This document shows, one piece after another, positions 22,128-49,209 of a stretch of 64,000 nucleotides of DNA. Source of the DNA: a virus (lineage: Duplodnaviria; Caudoviricetes); the IMG/VR virus record IMGVR_UViG_3300016670_000048, positions 22,181 to 86,180 of that record; one strand, given 5' to 3'. A model generated the notes under the pieces. It did not search any database. It worked only from the letters and a program-made list of their open reading frames with translations, and was not told the DNA's origin. A program made the position numbers and the translations under genes. How positions within the stretch are numbered: position 1 is the stretch's first letter; each line of letters begins with the position of its first letter.

Positions 22128-22901
22128 TTAAGGGTTAGTTGGCGGAATAACCGCAGGAGCGTGGCGGTGGGTATTGAAAATTACACCGTTAAAGGTAGCA
22201 ACACCTGTCATAGAATAGTTGCCGACTTGTGTCAGATTACCTTGAAGGTTTATACTTCCCAGCCAATCTGTGCTTGCAACATCTACAGTCATAGTCTGTG
22301 CATTCAAATTAATACTATTAGAGGCATTAACTGTGGCATCAGAACAATTAATAATAACCGGCTGGTTAGAAGTATTAATTTCAATACTGCCATCAGACTT
22401 CAATCTTACTTCGCTTTCTGCACCACCCAGATTAGCAAAAATCACTACATCCTTAGTATCATGTGTTAGAACATGCTTTGCTGGATTATTCACAGCCACA
22501 CCGGGAGGTTGGATACCCGGAAGAAAGATAGCGTCTCCCTTGTCCATCTTAGCGAAGTTCATAGGACTTGCTGGACGACCATTGCCAGCTTTCCAACCAT
22601 CCATGTTCCTCATAGAGAACATGGCAGTGCCTGTATCACCCACCTCAATAGGGAAAGTGAACCCAGACTTTTTAGATACTTGGAAAGATACTGGGACACC
22701 GGGGATAACCGCACGCTCTTTAACAGTGCCATCTTGTTCAAGTTGATTAATCGTTGGTTGTATATCAACCATCTGACCATTCAATCCGTCCCTGACAGCC
22801 ACGACAATACAAGGTATAATTGTGTAAAGATTTTGCATTTGACTGCTAAAAGCACTAACCATCGTACTTTGTATAGCTGCTACAGCTTCAGAACTCATCA
22901 C
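22128..22901 (-). CDS. baseplate spike / puncturing protein (gp138/gpV-like)
   Basis: PGVPVSF...FTFPIEVGD, DAIFLPG; C-terminal HRH metal motif. Confidence 0.88.
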   Translation of the reverse strand: MMSSEAVAAIQSTMVSAFSSQMQNLYTIIPCIVVAVRDGLNGQMVDIQPTINQLEQDGTVKERAVIPGVPVSFQVSKKSGFTFPIEVGDTGTAMFSMRNMDGWKAGNGRPASPMNFAKMDKGDAIFLPGIQPPGVAVNNPAKHVLTHDTKDVVIFANLGGAESEVRLKSDGSIEINTSNQPVIINCSDATVNASNSINLNAQTMTVDVASTDWLGSINLQGNLTQVGNYSMTGVATFNGVIFNTHRHAPAVIPPTNP

Positions 22902-39245: not shown

Positions 39246-40754
39246 TTAAAAGCTGAATTCATTTGATTTTGTCATGCTGGGCATGGAGAAGGTTGGGACT
39301 TGGAATTTCTGTGCTAGTTGCATATAACCAAGAGAACAACAATCGACCATATCGTCGTGGCCCAGTTCGCCGCTTTTCCGGGTCCCATCAAAATTCTCTA
39401 ACTCCTTGTAAAAGAAATCGTTAGAGTTTGTGATGTTGTTCCAAAGGTCGTTTGCACAGTTGGTTACGATGGAAACAACACCTAATTCAACAGAAGCTGC
39501 GAAAGGTCTGAACGAATCCAACTTACCAGCAGGAGAGCGCCTAACTTTAGCAACAATTCCCATTTCATTAAGAGACTTGGCAATCATACTAGTTGCTGCT
39601 TTAGCTGCGGCGTTCGGATCTTCAGGAAGAATAACTTCTACAGCCCTACCATCTCTTTCCGAGTTCTCAACGATGTGTTTTACCCAATTACCAAAAGTAA
39701 TTCGTGTCCTTGTAATATCAAGGATTACATAATCACCGGTCTTGAGTTTACCCATCTTCACAGAAGCAAAGTAGTCGGGAGACCTGTTTTGATCATGGGG
39801 AAGAGTGCCTGCAAAATCGTAAGCTCGAACAATTCTTACGAAGTCTGTATGAGGTGGGGGTGCAGTCAATTCTATTAAATCTGCCCGGTCAAAGTACGAC
39901 GAATTATCGGGCCTTGCGAACCAATTGCCCCATCTAAGCCTTTCACAATCTAGCTTAGGAAGAGCTTCCAAATTTTTCTTGTAGCTGGGATTGGACAAAT
40001 TTAACGGTGGGTTATCTTCAATTGTACCAAAGAGACCTTGAAAGCTAATTGGTTCTATTTGGTCTTTATGATCAGCAGGTAGATCTGGATTGCCGTACTT
40101 TTCAATCATCTCTTCTCTGGTATCTCCCCAGACAAGATCACCATTGATTCGGAGCAAAAATCTGATTACACCATTTTTCTCTGGGTCAGGTCGACCGGCC
40201 AATGGGTGATGTTCGGGGTAGAGCCACCACATGGCATACTTAAGCACCCAACTCGCGTTGTCTGGGTTACACGACCACCACATCGAGTGTATATTATCTG
40301 CATCAGAACGGAGACGTGACCAGAGCCACCACAATTGTTCTTCATTTTCTGCGTGAGTTACCTCATCATAGAAAATGTTTGAAATTTGAATACCCTGATA
40401 TTTCTTAGCTGCGTTATCATTCTCGTAGTGAGAAAAGCTAACTTCCGCCCCGCTAGAAAAGACCAGTTTTTGATCTTTAAGACGAATCTTTAAATTGGGA
40501 TCAAACTGGCTATAAAGTTTCACAGCTTCTTGGAACAAACCACCAGAAGCCATGATTGCACTAGAGTTCTTTCGAATACAATAAGCTTTATAATTTGGAT
40601 CGTGGGCAAAGCGGAGGTGACGCATTAATCCTACGTAACTCTTTGAACTTCCTGCTGCGCCGCCCACCAAAATAATCTGGGCGTCGGAGTTGAGGTATTT
40701 TTGCTGGAACTCCGACGCTGGGCCTATAACAACTTCATCTGGTTTTAGTTTCAA
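39246..40754 (-). CDS. terminase large subunit
   Basis: Walker A GGAAGSSKS, Walker B IFYDE, CNPD, HDDMVD nuclease motif. Confidence 0.95.
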   Translation of the reverse strand: MKLKPDEVVIGPASEFQQKYLNSDAQIILVGGAAGSSKSYVGLMRHLRFAHDPNYKAYCIRKNSSAIMASGGLFQEAVKLYSQFDPNLKIRLKDQKLVFSSGAEVSFSHYENDNAAKKYQGIQISNIFYDEVTHAENEEQLWWLWSRLRSDADNIHSMWWSCNPDNASWVLKYAMWWLYPEHHPLAGRPDPEKNGVIRFLLRINGDLVWGDTREEMIEKYGNPDLPADHKDQIEPISFQGLFGTIEDNPPLNLSNPSYKKNLEALPKLDCERLRWGNWFARPDNSSYFDRADLIELTAPPPHTDFVRIVRAYDFAGTLPHDQNRSPDYFASVKMGKLKTGDYVILDITRTRITFGNWVKHIVENSERDGRAVEVILPEDPNAAAKAATSMIAKSLNEMGIVAKVRRSPAGKLDSFRPFAASVELGVVSIVTNCANDLWNNITNSNDFFYKELENFDGTRKSGELGHDDMVDCCSLGYMQLAQKFQVPTFSMPSMTKSNEFSF

Positions 40755-41645
40755 TTAACTTCCCTCACTATGAAATTCCACCCACTCCTTATCGTAATGA
40801 GGAATCCAATTTTCTCGGAACATTTCAACTAATTTATCAAAATGAAATCTAGGGTATTCTACATTTTCTAACTTAGAACAAATAGTGGCAAAAGAATAGG
40901 CTTTTGGCTTATCGTTCTCAATCCAGATATTGTAATAATTTGCGGCCATTGCCCATACCCTTGCTCGGGCTGGTCTTGCTAAGGCTGCACTTTTCTGCCA
41001 AGGTTTTAAGGATTTCTGGTACTCAGACAATTGAGCTTTTTGCTCTTCTGAAATAACCTTACCTATCTGAGCCAACCTAGATTTTTCAACAGCTTCTGGC
41101 GATCTTTTCTTACCTCGAAAAGCATCTCCAATCTTCTTTCTGGCAGACTCTGGAACTGTCCAACCGGAAGCAATTAGTTCTTGTCGCTTTGCACTTATCT
41201 TACTTTTAGTCTCTTCAGAAACTTTATGACCCATCATTTTCTGCCTACCTTTTTCGATAGACTCTGTTGTTCTTTTATGACCAGTTAGTGTTTGACGAAT
41301 CTTCTCTTTTGTTTCTTCAGAGACAACCCTATTACTCATAAACTCTGCTTTAGCAATCTTAGCTTTCTCAACTTCACGAGAAGTAAGAATACCTTTATGA
41401 GAATTTACAGTGCGTGCATAAGCCCACATCAAACTATAGTTATCAGGATTAGCTTTCCACAAAAGACGATGTGCAATCACATGCTCTCTAGGGGTAAACA
41501 GAACAAAGTTGGAATTTTTATCAGAACCACCGAGACATTTGGGGATAATGTGGTGTTTTTCAAAATAACCATCTAAGACTTTCTTATCTAAACCTCTAGC
41601 AACACACTTATCAACTAGAGCATTATAAATTTTCTGATAATTCAA
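40755..41645 (-). CDS. HNH homing endonuclease with NUMOD3 repeats
   Basis: EKHHIIPKCLGGSD...N...REHVIAHRLL; SEETKxKI repeats. Confidence 0.92.
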   Translation of the reverse strand: MNYQKIYNALVDKCVARGLDKKVLDGYFEKHHIIPKCLGGSDKNSNFVLFTPREHVIAHRLLWKANPDNYSLMWAYARTVNSHKGILTSREVEKAKIAKAEFMSNRVVSEETKEKIRQTLTGHKRTTESIEKGRQKMMGHKVSEETKSKISAKRQELIASGWTVPESARKKIGDAFRGKKRSPEAVEKSRLAQIGKVISEEQKAQLSEYQKSLKPWQKSAALARPARARVWAMAANYYNIWIENDKPKAYSFATICSKLENVEYPRFHFDKLVEMFRENWIPHYDKEWVEFHSEGS

Positions 41646-41647
41646 AC

Positions 41648-42289
41648 TTAAACACTCCCAAACTGAATCTTCATCCGTTCGGGAATTGCTTGCACTACCA
41701 ATTCTTTATAGCGATTTCGATCACCTTCGAACAAGAAGTTTTCTTCAATTGTCCCAGTGATATGTTTTACAGAATCACAGAAGCCAACAACACGACCATT
41801 AACTTTATCCAAAAGATTAGCTTTATTAGCCCAAGAGTCATCTTTCTCAAGATTCTCAATTGAGTCGATAACAACCATCTGCTTGGCTCGGAACAAATGA
41901 GCTAGTACAAAGTCTTTTGAAATGTTGGCATCGAACAGCATCAAGTCACGAGCAAGACCTTGGGTCTTTGCAATACAGTTATCACCACATGCAATAAACT
42001 TAATCTTTGAACCATTCCTCAATGTTGCAATTGCAGACTTTTCAGAGTAGCGAATATCTGAACCAAACATTTTTAGCATGTATTCTTTAACACTGCCAGC
42101 ACGATTAATATGAAACCATGTTGGAACTAAGAATGTCACATTGATATCTTGGTTATCAGAAGCTACTTGCCAAGCTTTCATAAGCAAGGCTGTAGTTGCA
42201 CCTGCTCCGGGCTCTGCTGTAATAACCGTGAGCTTCTCGTTTGATTCAAGAAGCTCTTTCTGCATCTTTGTTGCAAATACAACTGACAT
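41648..42289 (-). CDS. degenerate terminase-ATPase paralog
   Basis: Colinear with TerL N-terminal domain but Walker A is GAGAT and Walker B is LFDA. Confidence 0.7.
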   Translation of the reverse strand: MSVVFATKMQKELLESNEKLTVITAEPGAGATTALLMKAWQVASDNQDINVTFLVPTWFHINRAGSVKEYMLKMFGSDIRYSEKSAIATLRNGSKIKFIACGDNCIAKTQGLARDLMLFDANISKDFVLAHLFRAKQMVVIDSIENLEKDDSWANKANLLDKVNGRVVGFCDSVKHITGTIEENFLFEGDRNRYKELVVQAIPERMKIQFGSV

Positions 42290-42667: not shown

Positions 42668-42917
42668 AATTTCTCTCCGTTTGTTCTCAATTCATAAAAG
42701 AGATATTACGCTACGTAACAGTAGTTTGTCAAGCTTTCTTAAAAATAATTATCAATTAACTAAAAATAAATGCCAACTCTACCACCTACCCGTAAGTTGA
42801 CTCTCAGACTCTAAGATTAAGTCTGCCTTCTCCACTCGATAGCTTACCTATCAGCATTGGAACTAGACCTCCGCCAGAAGGTCTTGGGTTTCCGAACTAG
42901 GCAGCTCAGAAATTCTT

Positions 42918-43328
42918 TCAGTCTTTCTTTTCTACAGGCTCATCAAACGTCAACTTCAATCGAGGAACAAGCTTCACAATCTCAGCAGCTTCTTGCTGCT
43001 CATCTTCGTCGTCATCCGAACGCTTACCTTCTATACGGATCTTAGTCAGACTAGCCTCTTCACTAGCTGCGGCACGGTCCAAAGCAATGATGCTAGAAAC
43101 GATCCACTTCGAACTGTCCAACTGTTGAGTTTCTACTTTCTCACCTTCCACACTCTTCTTGATATTCTCAAGTGCAGTTGGTTGAATCTTACGTAGTTCT
43201 TCAGCGGTTTCACGAAGCTTAGACTTCTGGATGCGAATTTTTGAATTTGATTTCGTATTTCTATTGCTTTTCTCACCATCAAAACGATGAGCCTTCTGTG
43301 CTGCTGTTTGTTCTTTTTTGTTAGCCAT
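42918..43328 (-). CDS. probable terminase small subunit
   Basis: First gene of the packaging module; HRFDGEKS N-terminus, helical body. Confidence 0.6.
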   Translation of the reverse strand: MANKKEQTAAQKAHRFDGEKSNRNTKSNSKIRIQKSKLRETAEELRKIQPTALENIKKSVEGEKVETQQLDSSKWIVSSIIALDRAAASEEASLTKIRIEGKRSDDDEDEQQEAAEIVKLVPRLKLTFDEPVEKKD

Positions 43329-43382
43329 AATTAAATACCTATAATTTCAAGATCGCACTCAAGGTAGCGTATCACCTGAAAA

Positions 43383-43590
43383 TTTCTTAAATTCTATCAA
43401 CAGGACATACCTGCAATATACTAAGAAGTAAGGATAGAATTTAAGAAATGACCCTGTTATATTGCCTATAAAATATAGGAGAGGATACGTTACAGGCACA
43501 AGGTCAATAGCGAAATAAAGGAGGAGAGAACTTTATACGCTTAATGTCCGGCATAGAGGAGGAAGACGCCGGGAGGAAACACACCTTTCT
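43383..43590 (-). ncRNA. hairpin array with CU-rich (anti-SD-like) loops
   Basis: Four stem-loops including a perfect 16-bp stem; loops CUUCCUCCUCU, UUCUCUCCUC. Confidence 0.55.
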
Positions 43591-43622
43591 AGGATTTGAT
43601 CTTCGTGGTGTGGTGAAACTAA

Positions 43623-43707
43623 TTTGAAGTATCACGCTTTTCACGGGGCTGCCAGTAATCATTCTCTGACCCGGTATCGACTTCGGGGCTTTCGCCTATA
43701 CTTCAAA
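43623..43707 (-). ncRNA. structured RNA unit C (unknown class)
   Basis: 10-bp closing stem UUUGAAGUAU/AUACUUCAAA enclosing GGC-GAAA-GCC and further hairpins. Confidence 0.55.
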
Positions 43708-43710
43708 ACT

Positions 43711-43787
43711 TGGTGGGTCCATCCAGACTTGAACTGGAAATCAACGAATTATGAGTTCGCTGCATTAACCAATTATGCTACAGACCC
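43711..43787 (-). tRNA. tRNA with CAT anticodon (Ile2 or elongator Met), CCA encoded
   Basis: GGGTCTG/TGGACCC acceptor, CTCATAA loop, GTTCAAG T-loop, ACCA end. G1-C72 and no GGG/CCC anticodon stem, so not an initiator. Confidence 0.93.
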
Positions 43788-43790
43788 TAG

Positions 43791-43900
43791 ATTAGTTCCG
43801 CATGTGCGGGAAAGTCCACGTTCTTCCAAACTCTATAACGTTACGGTTGTAGGACTGACTTGCGCCTTGAAGACATAACCACTGTTTTGAGTAAACTAAT
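43791..43900 (-). ncRNA. structured RNA unit B (unknown class)
   Basis: Closing stem AUUAGUUU/GAACUAAU, GGC-GCAA-GUC hairpin, possible pseudoknot AGUCC/GGACU. Confidence 0.5.
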
Positions 43901-43925
43901 GATCTGTTTCTTATCAGGCGACTTT

Positions 43926-44011
43926 ATCTGGAAAGTCACATTACCACTACCAAATTAGGAGGCCAATATTGGTTTAGGCACAGATGTTCTTTCGGAGCAT
44001 CCCTTCCAGAT
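43926..44011 (-). ncRNA. structured RNA unit A (three-way junction, GAAA tetraloop plus receptor)
   Basis: 10-bp closing stem, C-GAAA-G loop, GCCUAAACC...GGUAGU receptor. Confidence 0.6.
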
Positions 44012-44155
44012 TTAAACCCACTCTTCTTCATTAGTAATTTCGTCACAACCGATATCAAGATATTCAAACATCTCTTGTGCAGAGCTAAACCGAATAAGGT
44101 TTTCACCACGATCAGTTGCATCCATCACTTCTTGAGTTTTGGTATTTGGAATCAT
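44012..44155 (-). CDS. 47-aa peptide resembling the DinJ/RelB antitoxin C-terminus
   Basis: AGGAG RBS; MIPNTKTQEVMDATDRGENLIRFSSAQEMFEYLDIGCDEITNEEEWV; absent from ORF track because of size. Confidence 0.7.
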   Translation of the reverse strand: MIPNTKTQEVMDATDRGENLIRFSSAQEMFEYLDIGCDEITNEEEWV

Positions 44156-44193
44156 TTTATTTCTCCTATGTTCGCATCGTTTTCACATTACCT

Positions 44194-44221
44194 ATTATAC
44201 AGACTTATTTCCGATTGTCAA
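44194..44221 (-). promoter_or_regulatory. consensus sigma70 promoter
   Basis: TTGACA-16-TATAAT. Confidence 0.85.
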
Positions 44222-44326
44222 CTAATATCTTTCATTTTGTTATAAAAGAATATTAACTATCAGAATCTGTAAATGTATGCTCTATACAACATTGTAACAT
44301 TATTACATTCTATTTGCAACTACTTT

Positions 44327-44518
44327 CTATTCAGAATAAGTCTCTGGAACGTAGAAAGGGTCACACTGATCTTCGAATGTATAGGTACGCGGTTCAAATT
44401 GATCGATGTTATAAACAACAGTTAGGCAGCTAGCACAGAAGTCTTCTTCACTGCCGTCATCTTGTTTCATTTTAAAATTCCTCCACGAAAGAGGCACATT
44501 ACAGCAACGACACCTCAT
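44327..44518 (-). CDS. small zinc-finger protein
   Basis: CRCC...CASC; AGGA RBS. Confidence 0.7.
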   Translation of the reverse strand: MRCRCCNVPLSWRNFKMKQDDGSEEDFCASCLTVVYNIDQFEPRTYTFEDQCDPFYVPETYSE

Positions 44519-44550
44519 CGGAGGATTCCTTTAATTAAGTTCAGAAGACT

Positions 44551-44579
44551 AATGTATCAAATAAATATCTAAAAAGCAA
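44551..44579 (-). promoter_or_regulatory. possible sigma70 promoter
   Basis: TTGCTT-17-TACATT. Confidence 0.45.
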
Positions 44580-44595
44580 GTGTTTGCGAAAATAA

Positions 44596-45576
44596 TTATA
44601 AAATTCTTATTCCTCCCATTTCAGAAAAGATATTCATAACTTGGTCTAAGTAAATAGTGTAGCAAATCTCCGACCAACCTGACTCAGAAGTATCCATTTC
44701 TAATAAACCCCTAGGGATAAGATCTTTACATTTTCTTTCCGCAGCCTTGCACTCTGCAATAGTCCCATACTCGTATATGGCAAACAGCTCATGCCTGTAC
44801 TGGGAATTATAGTTGTGTTGTATAAGTCTGTTTCTAGAGTTTTTAGATATTCCAAATTTAATAGCTACTGGAACCTGTTCATCATACATCAGATTAATAT
44901 ATGATTCTGTTTGCCTATGAAATGCACAAGAACAACCAACTTGACCCCTCTGCAAGTGTCCTTGCTGGCTTTCATATACATCTCCACACCTATCGCAAGT
45001 TATTTGCCAATAAACACACTGACCTCTCTTAGTTGTCCTGTCTATTCGTTTAAACTTGGTTTCGCTTCCAAAAGAACCTGACTCCATAAAAGATTTAATC
45101 ATAATACTTTCTGGTTTAATATTAAACTTTCTAGCAGCAGCCATTCCCTTGATATCTCTACAATTGATACATCCACGCTCTGCACTCCAAAGCATTGATA
45201 ACTCAAGTGACCAAGTATGGTTACACTTTGTACAGGATAAATTACAACGGGAGCTGGAGCCTGTATAGGGTTGGATTATGCCACAAAACCTATGTCCTGC
45301 ATTTTTAGCGGATCTTTGACTTTTAACTATAGCTTGTTGTTCTGTCCAAATAACTTTTCCTGCACAACCACAAAACAATGCACCCTTTAAGTAATTTTGT
45401 TTGTCTGTATAAAATAAAGAATCACCAAATAATTCTGTGTCAAAGGAACAAACATTGCACTTGAATATATAATCTGTTCTTTTATTATTTCTAACTGTAC
45501 CTATGTATCTGTATCTACCTGAATCTTGTAATTTATAGTCTTTCTTTATGTCTTGAATTGATCCACTGTAAATCAT
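44596..45576 (-). CDS. putative homing endonuclease, zinc-ribbon repeat family
   Basis: FKCNVC, CTKC...W, CDRCG repeats; C-terminal AIKFGISKNSRNRL. Confidence 0.72.
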   Translation of the reverse strand: MIYSGSIQDIKKDYKLQDSGRYRYIGTVRNNKRTDYIFKCNVCSFDTELFGDSLFYTDKQNYLKGALFCGCAGKVIWTEQQAIVKSQRSAKNAGHRFCGIIQPYTGSSSRCNLSCTKCNHTWSLELSMLWSAERGCINCRDIKGMAAARKFNIKPESIMIKSFMESGSFGSETKFKRIDRTTKRGQCVYWQITCDRCGDVYESQQGHLQRGQVGCSCAFHRQTESYINLMYDEQVPVAIKFGISKNSRNRLIQHNYNSQYRHELFAIYEYGTIAECKAAERKCKDLIPRGLLEMDTSESGWSEICYTIYLDQVMNIFSEMGGIRIL

Positions 45577-45624
45577 CTTACTCTCTTTCTTGTATTAAAT
45601 ATTATTTATATTGTATTAGATTTA

Positions 45625-46078
45625 CATTTCAACTGAGTTCAGATAGGAACTTCAGATAAAGAAATACCTTACCCAGCCATACAAAGCCAACGCTCTGCCT
45701 AAGACCGAGTAACGTACCTTATCTGATAGCTCTATCTGCCTCTGTCCGTTATTAGCAATTAAATTGCCTTTCAACTTGAGACGAGATTTAGTGAGTGAAT
45801 AAATCACTCTATGGTCTACACGGACAAACGTAGCCACCTTCAGGACAATGACACTAATAACGCATTGTCTCAACACATTGCATATCGCACGACTTTATTA
45901 GAATCGTTAGGGAGGTAGTGTTTTTCAGTTTACCTTGCAGACTGTCCCATCACTCACAGTAGTCCGCTTGTTTAAGAAAGAAGCTGCCATCTCACACAGG
46001 AAGCGTTAGCCACCATGTTAACCGACCTTCAATCCGATCCTTAATCCAATGTGCTTTCGCTTAGAGTTTTAAGGAGTG
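45625..46078 (-). ncRNA. large structured non-coding RNA, unknown class (~450 nt)
   Basis: Two upstream promoters, no credible ORF, more than ten helices with G-U pairs favouring the minus strand. Confidence 0.6.
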
Positions 46079-46083
46079 CATCA

Positions 46084-46111
46084 ATTATACAGAATTATAG
46101 AAGTAGAGCAA
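46084..46111 (-). promoter_or_regulatory. sigma70-like promoter for the large RNA
   Basis: TTGCTC-16-TATAAT. Confidence 0.65.
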
Positions 46112-46152
46112 GAGATTTATTTAACTCTTTAATTTTACTAGCTATTCATCTT

Positions 46153-46181
46153 ATACTAACATGGATTTTCAAATAAAGCAA
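46153..46181 (-). promoter_or_regulatory. second, upstream sigma70-like promoter
   Basis: TTGCTT-17-TAGTAT. Confidence 0.5.
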
Positions 46182-46270
46182 GCCCTTTCGTCTTTTTTTG
46201 ATCCATCATCACCAAAATAATCCCTATTCCAAATCAACCTAACCAAACCTAAATTATTTTAGCAATCCGC

Positions 46271-46299
46271 TTGCTTTCCACAAATCTGTAGCGTAGAAT
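46271..46299 (+). promoter_or_regulatory. divergent sigma70-like promoter for accessory genes
   Basis: TTGCTT-17-TAGAAT. Confidence 0.7.
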
Positions 46300-46338
46300 T
46301 GGTTCATCAAATAGAGAAACACCTAAAGGAGAGAAGAA

Positions 46339-49209
46339 ATGAAAACATACGAACTGAAAATTGAACCTTGCCACACAGATAACGAGAAGATCTATCGCAC
46401 CAAAGGTCACCATAGTGCAGACGATTTCCTTAAGGCTTTGAAAGAATATGGTGTAGATATTACCTATTACACAGTTCCTGAACAGATTTATATTAAGACT
46501 ACTCCCGCACATAAAGATTCGTGGTGCTCTGCCCACTATAACATCGTAGACAAGTCTGTTCGTGGAGCTTATCCTTGCACTTATGTTAGGGAATATGGGG
46601 AGGTCTATAATGAAGATTGATTATGTTATGGTGTTTCTTGTTGGTGTTTGTTTTGGAGCAATTCTTCAATATTGGTCTTAGGAGGTCTAAACTATGAAAG
46701 ATCCAGTCAAGCATTGCAGCCTGTACAAAGAGGAGGGCTGTACCCATGTAGATGGGATGTTGTGTGATTTTGAAACTTGTTCAATGCGAATTGGTTATGA
46801 TAATAAATATATTGCACTGCTGAAACTTGTGACAGATCACAACCAAGCATGCGATTCTGAGTGTAGTGCTAACGCAAAGTATTGTATTGATTATTTGGCT
46901 GTTGGGCGTAGATGCTCAGGTTGTCCTAAGTATTACAAGGTAGATATTTAATCATGCGCTACTCAAAAGGTCGTTGGACAGCTAGCTACCGGGACACTTA
47001 TAGCCTCGATATGACCCTACCCCCAATCATCTACGCCGGACTATCTAAATTCCACTCAGTGTTGGAACAAAAGAACCGCGAAGGGAAGTGTCTAGGCGTT
47101 CCTAACGAATACTGTGCAAACCCCGATGTAGACGTAACAGACCAAGAAATACAAAATTGGCTAGACGACATCAAGAAGATGATGTATGCTTTCGAGAACA
47201 AAGAGCCTGATATGAGCTTGTATAATTTCAAGCTTACGATGGTGCCTGTGGAATGTGAGCTTGCAAAATCTTATGAAGGTAAATTCGGCAAGTCATACAC
47301 AATCGAGTGTGATAATCTGGAAGAGAAAGCTAGATATTATGTGGATTGTGATGAGCATGAGAGGTTGGTGCAAGAGGGGCTTGATTTGTTCAGTCAGAAA
47401 TACCGCTCGTTGTGGTGGTAAATTAATAGGAGAAGACGAATGAGGGTCGTAATAGATAAGAGCTTTCTGCTTGAAGATGCGAATAAAGAAGATATTGATT
47501 TTTTAAAGGGTTGCACCATCTTCCATCAAATTGAGGGTACGGGAGATGTGACAATCATTGAGCAGAAAATAGACTTGTCAGAGGACTACATGGAAGCATT
47601 TCTTGATATCGTAGACTGGGCTTGTAGAGGTACAATTACTTTGGAAAGATACGCAACAGGACGTTATGGATTGAAACTCTCATGACAATCCTCCTAGCAT
47701 GGTCCGTGTGTGCCATTTGCAGCTTTTCATTGGGCAAATCCTACATAGAAAACCTCTTCCGTCCCTTCGGAGGGCTGCCATCAGTCTGTAGACGTATCTG
47801 GCTGGAAGACCCTGAAAACACCGCCAAAGATAGACAGTCTTTGAATGAAATGCCAGATGGATTCATTGCAGCAGTCCTTTATACAATACTTCTTGTGCTG
47901 AACCTTATGTTGTGGCCACTTGTATTGTCTGTTATCATCTGGCTTAAGATATTTCCATTGGATACAGAAGAGTTGGAGGAGTATAGGGAATGATTGATCT
48001 ACCAATTACAAAATTCAGGGCATGGGCAATTGATCTTGTCTATACTGACGGCGATGAAGTTACAGCCTATTGGGATGAAGTTGCTGGTGTCTATTGCTGG
48101 AATAGTTGGAGTGTCCCTCGCAGGGGTATTCGAGAAGTAGTTATACCAGACAATACCTTTCAAAAGGGAGGAGTAAAATCTCACTCAGAAATTTATCTTG
48201 TTGAGATTACTCGAACACCTCGTATAGAAGAAACAGTTTCAGTGGAGAAGCTAGTCAAATGAAAATCCGAATCTGCCAAATGACCTACCCATCCAAGAAA
48301 CCATTCCGCGTGTTCTACGGGAAAGAAAAGCTTGCAGAGTTCTCTACAAAAGAGAGTGCTGAGGAATTTGCTAAGATTTATTTAGTGCCTCCTTATACGA
48401 TGCAGACAAATGTGTGGTATAAACGATGAATTATGAATTCTCGCATAAAGGTGCATAATTTATGAAAGTTTGTTGTAGTAATGGAAAACTATACGATTCG
48501 TTGACAGAGTTTGAACGTCTTGGTGGATGCAACAACGATCATTGCTTTGGTCCTATTGAAGAATATGTCTATTTACAATTCTGTGGGACATTCCACACAA
48601 ATGAATGTACAAGCTCAGATGATTTAGCTAAACTACTAAGACAACCTAATTGGGAAGACTGGATTGCCTCGCAGATTGAAGAGGAAGGGTTTGACAAGTA
48701 TAAAGAGTGGTATGCTAGGATGCTTCAACGTGGAGCTATCTGCGACGAGATGATTGAAGCTCATAATATAATGTTTATGGAGGAATGATGAAACCACAAG
48801 AGATTGACAAACTAGTTCAACTTGACCCTAATGGTATGAACGGAACTATCATGCAAACTCTTCTTCACCCTGAAGTGAATGAGATTCCTTTTGCAGATGC
48901 TTTGTATCATTTGTTGAGCAAGACTCTTGAAGAACGAGCTTATTATGAGAAAATGTATCAGAAGTTCTTTAATGTGCTTACAGCGAATGGTTTGATGACT
49001 AATGAATTGCTTGGATTGGAGGAGAAATGAAAATTACAGACGAACAAAAGAAAGCAATCTATACAGCTTATATGAAATGGGCAACTCAGCTATTTGACGA
49101 CCTTGAGGATAAGAGTGTGATTACGGCTGAGGAGCTGGTCTATAAGGTGTTGAGTTTGGTGGAATCATCTCTGACAGAACAGGAATTAGATGAAGAATAT
49201 GTGAAGTAA
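46339..49209 (+). other. cluster of about 9 small hypothetical ORFs (46339, 46694, 46954, 47440, 47682, 47990, 48462, 48785, 49027)
   Basis: Contiguous ORFs with RBSs; 47682..47993 has TM segments. Confidence 0.7.

Follow-up and report, generated by a model that had tools for sequence, protein, structure and literature searches.

What is a tailed phage doing with a tiny antitoxin-like peptide gene, a tRNA and several structured RNAs placed behind one strong promoter? The locus lies in the window, the 64,000-nucleotide stretch of DNA analysed here, which spans positions 22,181 to 86,180 of IMG/VR record IMGVR_UViG_3300016670_000048, from an uncultured 86-kb phage. A first-pass annotation of the sequence described it as a candidate tRNA-punctuated operon and inferred, as a speculative function, a compact cassette that protects translation from host toxins or nucleases. 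The elements it listed are almost all present and its observation is confirmed with the exception of one detail, the closing helix of unit B. Its interpretation is only partly supported. Two of the structured RNAs are new conserved families, and one of these displays pyrimidine loops complementary to ribosome-binding sites and may control translation.

Organization of the locus

The features of the locus and their coordinates are collected in Table 1. The promoter matches the sigma-70 consensus at 12 of 12 positions, and in related loci and contigs (locus L040 and contigs of sequencing runs X1 and X2) the hexamers are invariant while substitutions fall only in the spacer. No terminator-like site is called anywhere in 42800-44700. 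ARAGORN identifies the tRNA as tRNA-Met, and Rfam model RF00005 scores it at 63.4 bits against a gathering score of 29.

Table 1. Features of the RNA cluster and its surroundings (window coordinates)
Feature	Position	Strand	Description
Promoter	44194..44221	-	sigma-70 type; TTGACA (44221-44216), 16-nt spacer, TATAAT (44199-44194)
Shine-Dalgarno site	44167-44162	-	AGGAGA, upstream of the ORF
ORF	44012..44155	-	47 aa; stand-alone homologue of the C-terminal (toxin-binding) segment of RelB/DinJ antitoxins
Unit A	43926..44011	-	three-way-junction RNA starting 1 nt after the stop codon; closing helix P1 of 10 bp, P2 capped by a GNRA loop (GAAA here), P3 with conserved loop UUGGCCUCC; fold z-score -2.6
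Unit B	43925-43788	-	B1 plus remainder; fold z-score -1.3
Unit B1	43862..43922	-	conserved long hairpin; with unit A forms RNA family A-B1
Unit B remainder	43788..43861	-	optional module B2 (43856-43813), small hairpin CCGC-ACAU-GCGG (43809-43798), junction AACUAAUCUA
tRNA-Met	43711..43787	-	anticodon CAT, encoded CCA; 3-nt spacers CUA before and AGU after
Unit C	43623..43707	-	multi-branch RNA closed by a 10-bp helix, internal GGC-GAAA-GCC hairpin; fold z-score -1.6
Five-hairpin RNA (array)	43381..43620	-	5' AGUUUCACC; fold z-score -8.3 (plus strand -4.1)
H1	43612-43580	-	
H2	43572-43548	-	loop CUUCCUCCUCU
H3	43541-43509	-	loop UUCUCUCCUC
H4	43505-43450	-	loop CCUCUCCU
H5	43449-43382	-	long, conserved hairpin
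Promoter-like site	43318-43345	+	TTGTTA-16-TATAAT, 10 of 12 matches, pointing into the array
136-aa gene	42918..43328	-	first gene of the packaging/structural block, used as the anchor to find relatives; not part of the RNA cluster

The strand assignment of the first-pass annotation holds. The whole 629 nt folds with a z-score of -5.0 on the minus strand and -1.6 on the plus strand, and conserved G-U pairs in both RNA families are possible only on the minus strand. A blastn search of the 1-kb locus against GenBank phage DNA matched only the tRNA, as did Rfam, both at gathering score and at E up to 10.

The 47-aa ORF

Nine protein clusters at 77-89% identity match the ORF, and all nine close homologues are 44-51 aa long. 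Direct searches against Pfam and NCBIfam (no family listed even at E up to 10), PHROGs and PDB gave nothing. A profile of the 47-aa family, searched over 1.8 billion proteins, hits the C-terminal ends of PF04221 proteins at E 4e-6 to 9e-4. Alignment with hhalign extends this result with 99.2% probability over residues 2-36 against 53-87, that is the last ~35 residues of RelB/DinJ-family proteins (motif PN.KT....D.TDRGE.L..F.S..E.F..L), although the compared proteins were themselves picked as hits of that profile. The DinJ-like character proposed in the first-pass annotation is thus supported, and we consider it highly probable that the peptide is a homologue of the RelB/DinJ tail. It starts at the tail segment and has no N-terminal ribbon-helix-helix DNA-binding/dimerisation domain. 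No match to PF05016 or PF15738 is found in the 86-kb genome and no ParE/RelE/YafQ toxin gene is detected there, adjacent or otherwise, although the YafQ control search was weak. The ORF is absent from 30 related phage contigs, a search in viral contigs found none, and the metagenome scan gave one true relative, L040. Elsewhere the ORF is followed by another ORF.

The five-hairpin RNA family

The array is a ~240-nt, five-hairpin RNA found once each in 27 related phage loci, always on the strand of the tRNAs, and in one copy in each of 5 further complete genomes. A plain MAFFT plus RNAalifold run on 18 arrays recovered only 5 pairs, and a subset alignment, a projected structure and a covariance model (R1) were needed to describe the family. 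Covariation among relatives, which had been named beforehand as a test of the locus, is strong: 88.5% of cells are paired, against about 40% in slid controls, and 53 of 60 pairs change on both sides, values reached by 0 of 500 shuffles. Several pairs are conserved as G-U or U-G. The sense strand is more stable in 19 of 20 sequences, with a mean z-score of -7.3 against -3.3. Loops H2-H4 are purely pyrimidine in 18 of 18 sequences, with consensus CCUCUCCU, and stay conserved while the stem sequences vary. Rfam has no family for this RNA, and none at gathering score matches 10 relatives, in which only tRNA was found.

Other RNA modules and the exchange of cassettes

Unit A and hairpin B1 form a second conserved family. 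Its covariance model (R2) hits 8 loci; 87% of cells are paired, against 70% in shuffles and about 40% when slid, and 26 of 43 pairs change on both sides. Unit A is homologous in L004, L011, L026, L030 and L033, where P1, P2 and P3 covary. The first-pass annotation had each RNA unit closed by its own 8-10 bp helix, which holds for A and C but fails for B: no helix closes the whole of B, which consists of B1, an optional middle hairpin and a small hairpin. The remainder of B is identical in L075, partial in L040 and absent in L026, L030 and L033. A pattern search for unit B also hit two GC-rich coding sequences by chance, L073 and L076. The only homologue of unit C is L010/L002 (92% identity), with one compensatory A-U to G-C change in the closing helix, and a search with the unit C core pattern found only this one known relative. 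A tRNA-like element seen by eye upstream of unit C in L002/L010 was not confirmed by ARAGORN or Rfam.

These modules do not form a conserved operon. The identity of the tRNA changes among Met, His, Asn, Thr, Gly, Leu or none, and the block of tRNA-Met plus unit C is swapped as a unit in another metagenome (run X1). The ORF, A-B1, the tRNAs and C are mosaic cassettes swapped at fixed junctions, and only the array is conserved across the clade. This does not support the idea of one compact functional cassette. In contrast, the flanking RNAs are real structured RNAs on the tRNA strand, and the proposal that tRNA ends define their ends is probable: in five relatives (L005, L013, L021, L034 and L038), with three tRNA identities, the terminal A of the tRNA is the first base of the array.

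Proposed role of the five-hairpin RNA

We interpret the locus as the RNA-gene cluster of a tailed phage that is distant kin of Pseudomonas phages phiPMW and vB_PsaM_M1. In this view, the promoter drives one minus-strand precursor that first encodes the orphan antitoxin fragment and then carries stable-RNA modules in the order A-B1, B2, tRNA-Met, C and the five-hairpin RNA. The host tRNA-processing enzymes would cut this precursor at the tRNA ends, RNase P at the 5' end and an RNase E-type cut at the conserved CCA/AGUUU junction followed by trimming at the 3' end, releasing the neighbouring RNAs. The five-hairpin RNA would expose three or four pyrimidine loops (CCUCUCCU, UUCUCUCCUC) that resemble the anti-Shine-Dalgarno sequence of the ribosome and are tuned to AGGAGA and GGAGAGA, pair with such sites on phage mRNAs, and possibly host mRNAs, and block 30S binding, acting as a multivalent translational repressor or timer. 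The peptide, the tRNA and the other modules would be independently exchangeable cassettes, not obligate partners.

The promoter sequence and its conservation, the peptide homology, the two RNA families with their covariation and strand, the pyrimidine loops and the abutting tRNA ends are established by the sequence comparisons, whereas transcription, processing, toxin binding by the peptide and pairing of the loops with mRNAs are inferred. That conserved RNA families exist on this strand is almost certain, and release by tRNA processing is more likely than not, but masking of Shine-Dalgarno sites remains a tentative assignment. The sequencing runs provided only assembled contigs, which cannot show transcription, RNA ends or strand; this applies also to an RNA-library contig covering 43859-43987.

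Several properties of the genomes favour the masking hypothesis. GGAGAGA occurs 21 times in the genome, 17 of them 2-14 nt before a start codon, while AGGAGA precedes 39 genes and AGGAGG only 7; AGGAGA and GGAGAGA are the commonest Shine-Dalgarno types of these phages. Array-bearing genomes use GGAGAGA sites 8-17 times, against 8 and 2 in the array-less phiPMW and M1, and AGGAGG 5-13 times, against 24 and 29. Among 56 C5U3 octamers, CUCUCCUC and CCUCUCCU rank 1st and 2nd-4th for complementarity to start regions in the four array-bearing genomes, and CCUCUCCU ranks 8th-9th in the two array-less phages. About 15-20 start regions are predicted to bind the loop 3-5 kcal/mol better than the anti-Shine-Dalgarno sequence. 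However, any purine-rich ribosome-binding site complements any CU-rich loop, so the complementarity is only weakly discriminating, and the comparison of 4 array-bearing with 2 array-less genomes involves genomes that are not independent. GGAGAGA sites are not significantly concentrated in early genes (about 15 of 130 non-structural genes against 2 of 45 structural genes), and an early sigma-70 promoter would make the RNA at the same time as the mRNAs it is proposed to silence. The model does not explain H1, H5 and the conserved 5' UUCACC.

Very few regulatory RNAs of virulent phages are known, and none has a defined mechanism. The locus offers two covariation-supported RNA families with clear, mutable motifs and a simple prediction, that the loops pair with AGGAGA/GGAGAGA start sites; if that holds, it would be an RNA-based way for a phage to reprogram translation. 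It also shows tRNA genes behaving as exchangeable cassettes inside a conserved RNA scaffold and provides a minimal "antitoxin tail" peptide, a candidate anti-defence factor amenable to testing. In a bolder form of the hypothesis, which we regard as rather unlikely, the RNA is a phage-made, multivalent imitation of the anti-Shine-Dalgarno sequence tuned to the phage-preferred GGAGAGA variant, an RNA-only switch that masks a whole class of start sites to time phage gene expression or to shut off host translation, released from a processed RNA operon into which tRNA cassettes are swapped at one fixed junction.

Alternative roles

Three alternatives appear unlikely to a similar degree. The first makes the counter-defence idea of the first-pass annotation specific: the pyrimidine loops, together with the UUCACC 5' end, would mimic the 3' tail of 16S rRNA and soak up a host factor that attacks or binds that tail or CU-rich RNA, for example an endoribonuclease toxin with UCCU/CCUC-type specificity, while the peptide would neutralise RelE/YafQ-type toxins and the tRNA replace cleaved tRNA, the locus being a functional anti-toxin tool kit. 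The orphan antitoxin tail, the known capacity of phage tRNAs to evade tRNA-targeting defences (PMC10264068, PMC11555353, PMC11464382), the rapid turnover of cassettes, which fits an arms race, and the CCUCC core of the anti-Shine-Dalgarno sequence contained in the loops are compatible with this role, which on present evidence is a conjecture. However, the peptide and the RNAs are not co-inherited, the loop consensus is CCUCUCCU and not the rRNA sequence CACCUCCUUA, and no nuclease with this specificity is known for the host, itself unidentified.

Alternatively, the loops could titrate a host or phage RNA-binding protein that prefers CU-rich single strands, such as ribosomal protein S1 or a KH-domain protein, in analogy to CsrB/RsmZ sequestering CsrA. 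Three or four near-identical loops on stable stems of variable sequence are the architecture of known protein-sponge RNAs, but no candidate protein was identified and this model leaves as coincidence that the loops are exact complements of the phage's own ribosome-binding sites.

The array could also act purely in cis as the 3' end of the tRNA/RNA operon, as a stabiliser against 3' exonucleases, a processing platform, and a terminator or insulator in front of the packaging genes, without a trans target. It sits between the tRNA cluster and the first packaging gene in most relatives, phiPMW has an annotated rho-independent terminator at that place, and H5 is a long, conserved hairpin. Yet the sequences after H5 vary and lack the consistent U run expected of an intrinsic terminator, no terminator-like site was called, and a terminator does not need three invariant pyrimidine loops or a conserved 5' UUCACC. 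In L005 and L034 inserted genes separate the array from the packaging gene and it is nevertheless kept intact.

A functional plus-strand RNA with GGAG/AGGAGAGG loops, a CsrB/RsmZ-like sponge for CsrA/RsmA driven by the plus-strand promoter-like site, is very unlikely even though GGA motifs in hairpin loops are the hallmark of CsrA sponges, since the minus strand folds better in 19 of 20 homologues, conserved G-U pairs would be A-C mismatches on the plus strand, and the conserved 5' motif abuts tRNA 3' ends on the minus strand. A DNA-level site made of inverted repeats (pac/cos site, origin or recombination hot spot) is also very unlikely despite the position upstream of the packaging module, next to the terminase genes, and the mosaic junctions at its border, because stems covary freely while loops stay fixed, G-U pairs are strand-specific, and in a contig with direct terminal repeats the array is about 19.6 kb from the end.

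Relation to known systems

The closest analogues are the cuckoo/CcsR RNAs (Rfam ar14 group) of Alphaproteobacteria, hairpins whose loops carry an anti-Shine-Dalgarno-like pyrimidine motif repeated several times in one transcript, transcribed together with a small ORF and cut out of the precursor by RNase E next to U residues such as GUUUCC (PMC8034643). The phage RNA differs from these chromosomal RNAs in having CCUCUCCU/UUCUCUCCUC rather than CCUCCUCCC loops, one five-hairpin RNA rather than tandem two-hairpin units, and a RelB/DinJ tail rather than DUF1127 as neighbouring ORF, and it has no match to the Rfam model at E up to 10.

T4 band C and D RNAs and ncRNA1 and ncRNA2 of Pseudomonas phage PAK_P3 are abundant small RNAs of unknown function encoded beside or between phage tRNA genes, which lack their own start site and arise by processing (PMC4933390, PMC10914365). 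The PAK_P3 RNAs, invoked in the first-pass annotation, are an analogy of position and processing only: no sequence or structure homology to them or to the T4 RNAs is found, and model R1 finds nothing significant in PAK_P3, despite a shared UUCACCACAC decamer, nor in phiPMW or vB_PsaM_M1.

The T4 RegB endoribonuclease is a functional analogue only, a phage device that inactivates a class of mRNAs through their GGAG Shine-Dalgarno sequence; RegB is a protein nuclease, while here an RNA is proposed to mask the sites. RNAIII and RsaE, C-rich-loop regulatory RNAs of Firmicutes, have several pyrimidine loops that pair with ribosome-binding sites, and GOLLD and ROOL are large structured RNAs located next to tRNAs in phages. 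No Rfam match to any of them is found, and size, motifs and host range differ.

In the neighbouring packaging region, a reading in which the terminase is split by the HNH gene was discarded, as the 502-aa ORF alone covers the full phiPMW large terminase.

Genomic context and organization of the locus

The window is part of an 86,180-bp IMG/VR viral contig that is about 98% complete and codes for a large terminase with 53% amino acid sequence identity to those of Pseudomonas phages phiPMW, vB_PpS_SYP and vB_PsaM_M1. Genes from about 46.5 kb down to 14 kb run on the minus strand, and the locus lies between small, probably early genes and the packaging/structural block. The elements listed in the first-pass annotation are all present on the minus strand and its observation is confirmed, with a single wrong sub-claim: unit B does not have a closing helix of its own. 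The 629 non-coding bases fold better on the minus strand (z -5.0) than on the plus strand (z -1.6). Folded alone, units A, B and C give z values of -2.6, -1.3 and -1.6, respectively.

Coordinates of the features at the locus, in its surroundings and in related contigs
Feature	Sequence	Position	Strand	Characteristics
Promoter	window	44221-44194	-	TTGACA-16-TATAAT, 12 of 12 consensus matches
47-aa ORF	window	44155..44012	-	AGGAGA Shine-Dalgarno site
Unit A	window	44011-43926	-	starts 1 nt after the stop codon; closed by 10 bp
Unit B	window	43925-43788	-	followed by a CUA spacer
tRNA-Met(CAT)	window	43787..43711	-	followed by an AGU spacer
Unit C	window	43707-43623	-	closed by 10 bp
Hairpin array	window	43620-43381	-	five hairpins, H1-H5
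Motif AUUAUAGGUAAUUA	window and relatives	43336-43344 in the window	-	8-12 nt before the start of the 136-aa gene
Zinc-ribbon ORF	window	44327-44518	-	63 aa; phrog_10364; promoter-like site TTGCAA-17-TACAAT
CapR-domain endonuclease	window	44596-45576	-	326 aa; phrog_681
ORF-poor region	window	45600-46950		about 1.3 kb without ORFs of 100 aa or more
Large terminase region	window	39246-42289	-	502-aa terminase, HNH/NUMOD endonuclease, 213-aa ORF
HNH/NUMOD homing endonuclease	window	40755-41645	-	precedes the large terminase
Group I intron	related contig L023	4842-5107	+	RF00028, 88 bits
Fragments between modules	related locus L004	3655-3740		T-arm-like GGTTCGATTCC motifs
Fragments between modules	related locus L011	2860-2930		T-arm-like GGTTCGATTCC motifs
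ncRNA1 segment	L043 (phage PAK_P3)	1845-1860		contains GGUUCACCACACG

A peptide related to the tail of RelB/DinJ antitoxins

The 47-aa peptide is 77-89% identical to nine protein clusters of 44-51 aa, but direct searches of Pfam, NCBIfam, PHROGs and PDB gave no hit. A profile of the family scored against 1.84 billion proteins hits the carboxyl-terminal ends of proteins of 67-117 aa, five of which are bona fide members of the RelB/DinJ family (PF04221, for example the protein numbered P0015 at E 9e-17). Profile-profile comparison gives a 99.2% probability over residues 2-36 of the peptide against 53-87, although the proteins compared were themselves chosen as hits of the same profile. The ribbon-helix-helix domain is missing, and no ParE/RelE/YafQ gene was found in the phage. 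The "DinJ-like" label of the first-pass annotation is thus right in the narrow sense of an orphan antitoxin tail, for which toxin binding is inferred only.

Relatives and mosaicism of the locus

Use of the downstream 136-aa gene as an anchor yielded 8 loci, then 30 loci, from viral contigs of 80-92 kb. The region upstream of this gene is a mosaic. The tRNAs differ between relatives (His, Asn, Pro+Leu, Asn+Tyr+Thr, Thr, Gly, Met or none) and the 47-aa ORF is absent from all of them. One metagenome contig, L040, keeps the same promoter and ORF, followed there by a second ORF, the 3' part of B and then directly the array, with no tRNA or unit C. Locus L075 likewise joins B2, a module of unit B, straight to the array. 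Contigs from other metagenomes keep the promoter, the ORF, A and B at about 96% identity but replace exactly the 174 nt between 43795 and 43620 (tRNA-Met plus C) with another 177 nt that ends in a different tRNA, while another contig replaces 413 nt. The junctions ...AACUAAU(UCUA) and AGUUUCACC... therefore behave as fixed cassette borders. The fragments with T-arm-like GGTTCGATTCC motifs, and extra tRNAs, that lie between modules in L004, in L011 and downstream of the array in loci L030/L031 look like debris of earlier tRNA cassettes. The CapR-domain endonuclease gene just upstream of the locus may drive this cassette mosaicism; a related endonuclease gene is inserted between the array and the 136-aa gene in the related locus L034.

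The five-hairpin RNA

Twenty homologues of the array each fold into the same five domains, H1-H5, at the same relative positions, although their stem sequences differ. The mean z is -7.3 on the sense strand and -3.3 on the antisense strand, the sense strand being more stable in 19 of 20. Loops H2-H4 are exclusively pyrimidine in all 18 five-domain sequences: H4 is most often exactly CCUCUCCU, H2 and H3 contain (U)UCUCUCCUC or CCUCCUC, and the H1-H2 linker is often UUUCCUC. A covariance model built from 8 sequences (R1) finds exactly one match in each of 27 loci, always on the tRNA strand, one in the 64-kb window, and one in each of five further complete genomes. In the resulting alignment 88.5% of cells pair, against 61.8% in shuffles and 38-51% when slid, and 53 of 60 pairs change on both sides; none of 500 shuffles reaches any of these measures. 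Several pairs are conserved as G-U or U-G, which fixes the strand.

Rfam 15 has no family for this RNA, and the cultured relatives phiPMW, M1 and PAK_P3 lack it. The ncRNA1 of PAK_P3 contains GGUUCACCACACG, which shares a 10-nt string with the 5' end of the array (UUCACCACAC), but the rest does not match model R1. In five loci the terminal A of a tRNA (Thr three times, Gly, Leu) is the first base of the match (CCA/GUUUCACC), supporting definition of its 5' end by tRNA 3' processing, a step that is inferred.

Units A, B and C

A model built from the window, L004 and L011 (R2) finds full copies of A-B1, which joins unit A to the first hairpin of B, in L026, L030 and L033 and partial copies in L040 and L075. 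In this family 87.3% of cells pair, against 70.4% when shuffled and about 40% when slid, and 26 of 43 pairs change on both sides. Unit A is a three-way junction whose P2 always ends in a GNRA tetraloop (GAAA, GUAA, GUGA or GCGA). Its P3 loop UUGGCCUCC is conserved, so that unit A too carries a CCUCC loop. B1 is a conserved long hairpin, whereas B2 and the CCGC-ACAU-GCGG hairpin are optional. Unit C has one homologue (92% identity), with one compensatory change in its closing helix and three uncompensated changes inside; its status as an independent RNA is plausible but weakly supported.

Possible function

The array loops are the exact complement of the commonest ribosome-binding sites of this phage. 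GGAGAGA occurs 21 times in 86 kb, 17 of them 2-14 nt before a start codon, while AGGAGA precedes 39 genes and AGGAGG only 7. Four array-bearing genomes use GGAGAGA sites 8-17 times and AGGAGG 5-13 times, whereas the array-less phiPMW and M1 use GGAGAGA 8 and 2 times and AGGAGG 24 and 29 times. Of the 56 possible C5U3 octamers, the two loop motifs rank 1st and 2nd-4th for 7-nt complementarity to start regions in the array-bearing genomes; in the array-less phages CCUCUCCU ranks 8th-9th and the canonical CCUCCUUC ranks first or near the top. For 15-20 genes the predicted duplex with the loop is 3-5 kcal/mol stronger than with the anti-Shine-Dalgarno sequence.

We tentatively privilege the hypothesis of a multivalent RNA that masks Shine-Dalgarno sites, working like the cuckoo/CcsR RNAs (PMC8034643). 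The outcome would be like that of T4 RegB. The support is circumstantial and comes from sequence alone, without expression data: purine-rich sites complement any CU-rich loop, and the genome comparison is small and not independent. The RNA could alternatively be a decoy for factors that act on the 16S tail, a protein sponge or a purely cis-acting 3' structure. A plus-strand CsrA sponge and a DNA site are disfavoured by the strand-specific covariation. The analysis shows the covarying RNA families and their strand and, somewhat less firmly, the homology of the peptide, while toxin binding by the peptide, definition of RNA ends by tRNA processing and masking of Shine-Dalgarno sites are inferences. 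The integrated "counter-defence operon" proposed in the first-pass annotation is only partly supported: its parts are real and the peptide annotation is right, but the parts are independently mobile and a role in defence remains speculation.

By position and probable biogenesis the locus resembles the stable RNAs of phage tRNA clusters, T4 bands C and D and PAK_P3 ncRNA1/2, which are processed and abundant late (PMC4933390, PMC10914365), but it is not homologous to them. By motif logic it resembles the cuckoo/CcsR RNAs, yet it failed every criterion of membership applied. We therefore regard the array, and A-B1, as new RNA families of a known general kind, processed phage small RNAs with anti-Shine-Dalgarno-loop regulators.

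Neighbouring genes and sequence elements

The motif AUUAUAGGUAAUUA conserved ahead of the 136-aa gene reads as a TATAAT box on the opposite strand, and could be a ribosome-binding region, a phage-specific promoter or an antisense promoter. In a related contig, L023, a group I intron lies downstream of the 136-aa gene. The zinc-ribbon ORF, which has its own promoter-like site, is conserved in L004 upstream of the A-B1 RNA. The ORF-poor region lies between the divergent gene blocks. The large terminase is full-length and is preceded by the HNH/NUMOD homing endonuclease and by the 213-aa ORF, which has weak similarity to the terminase ATPase region and looks like a paralogue rather than part of a split gene.
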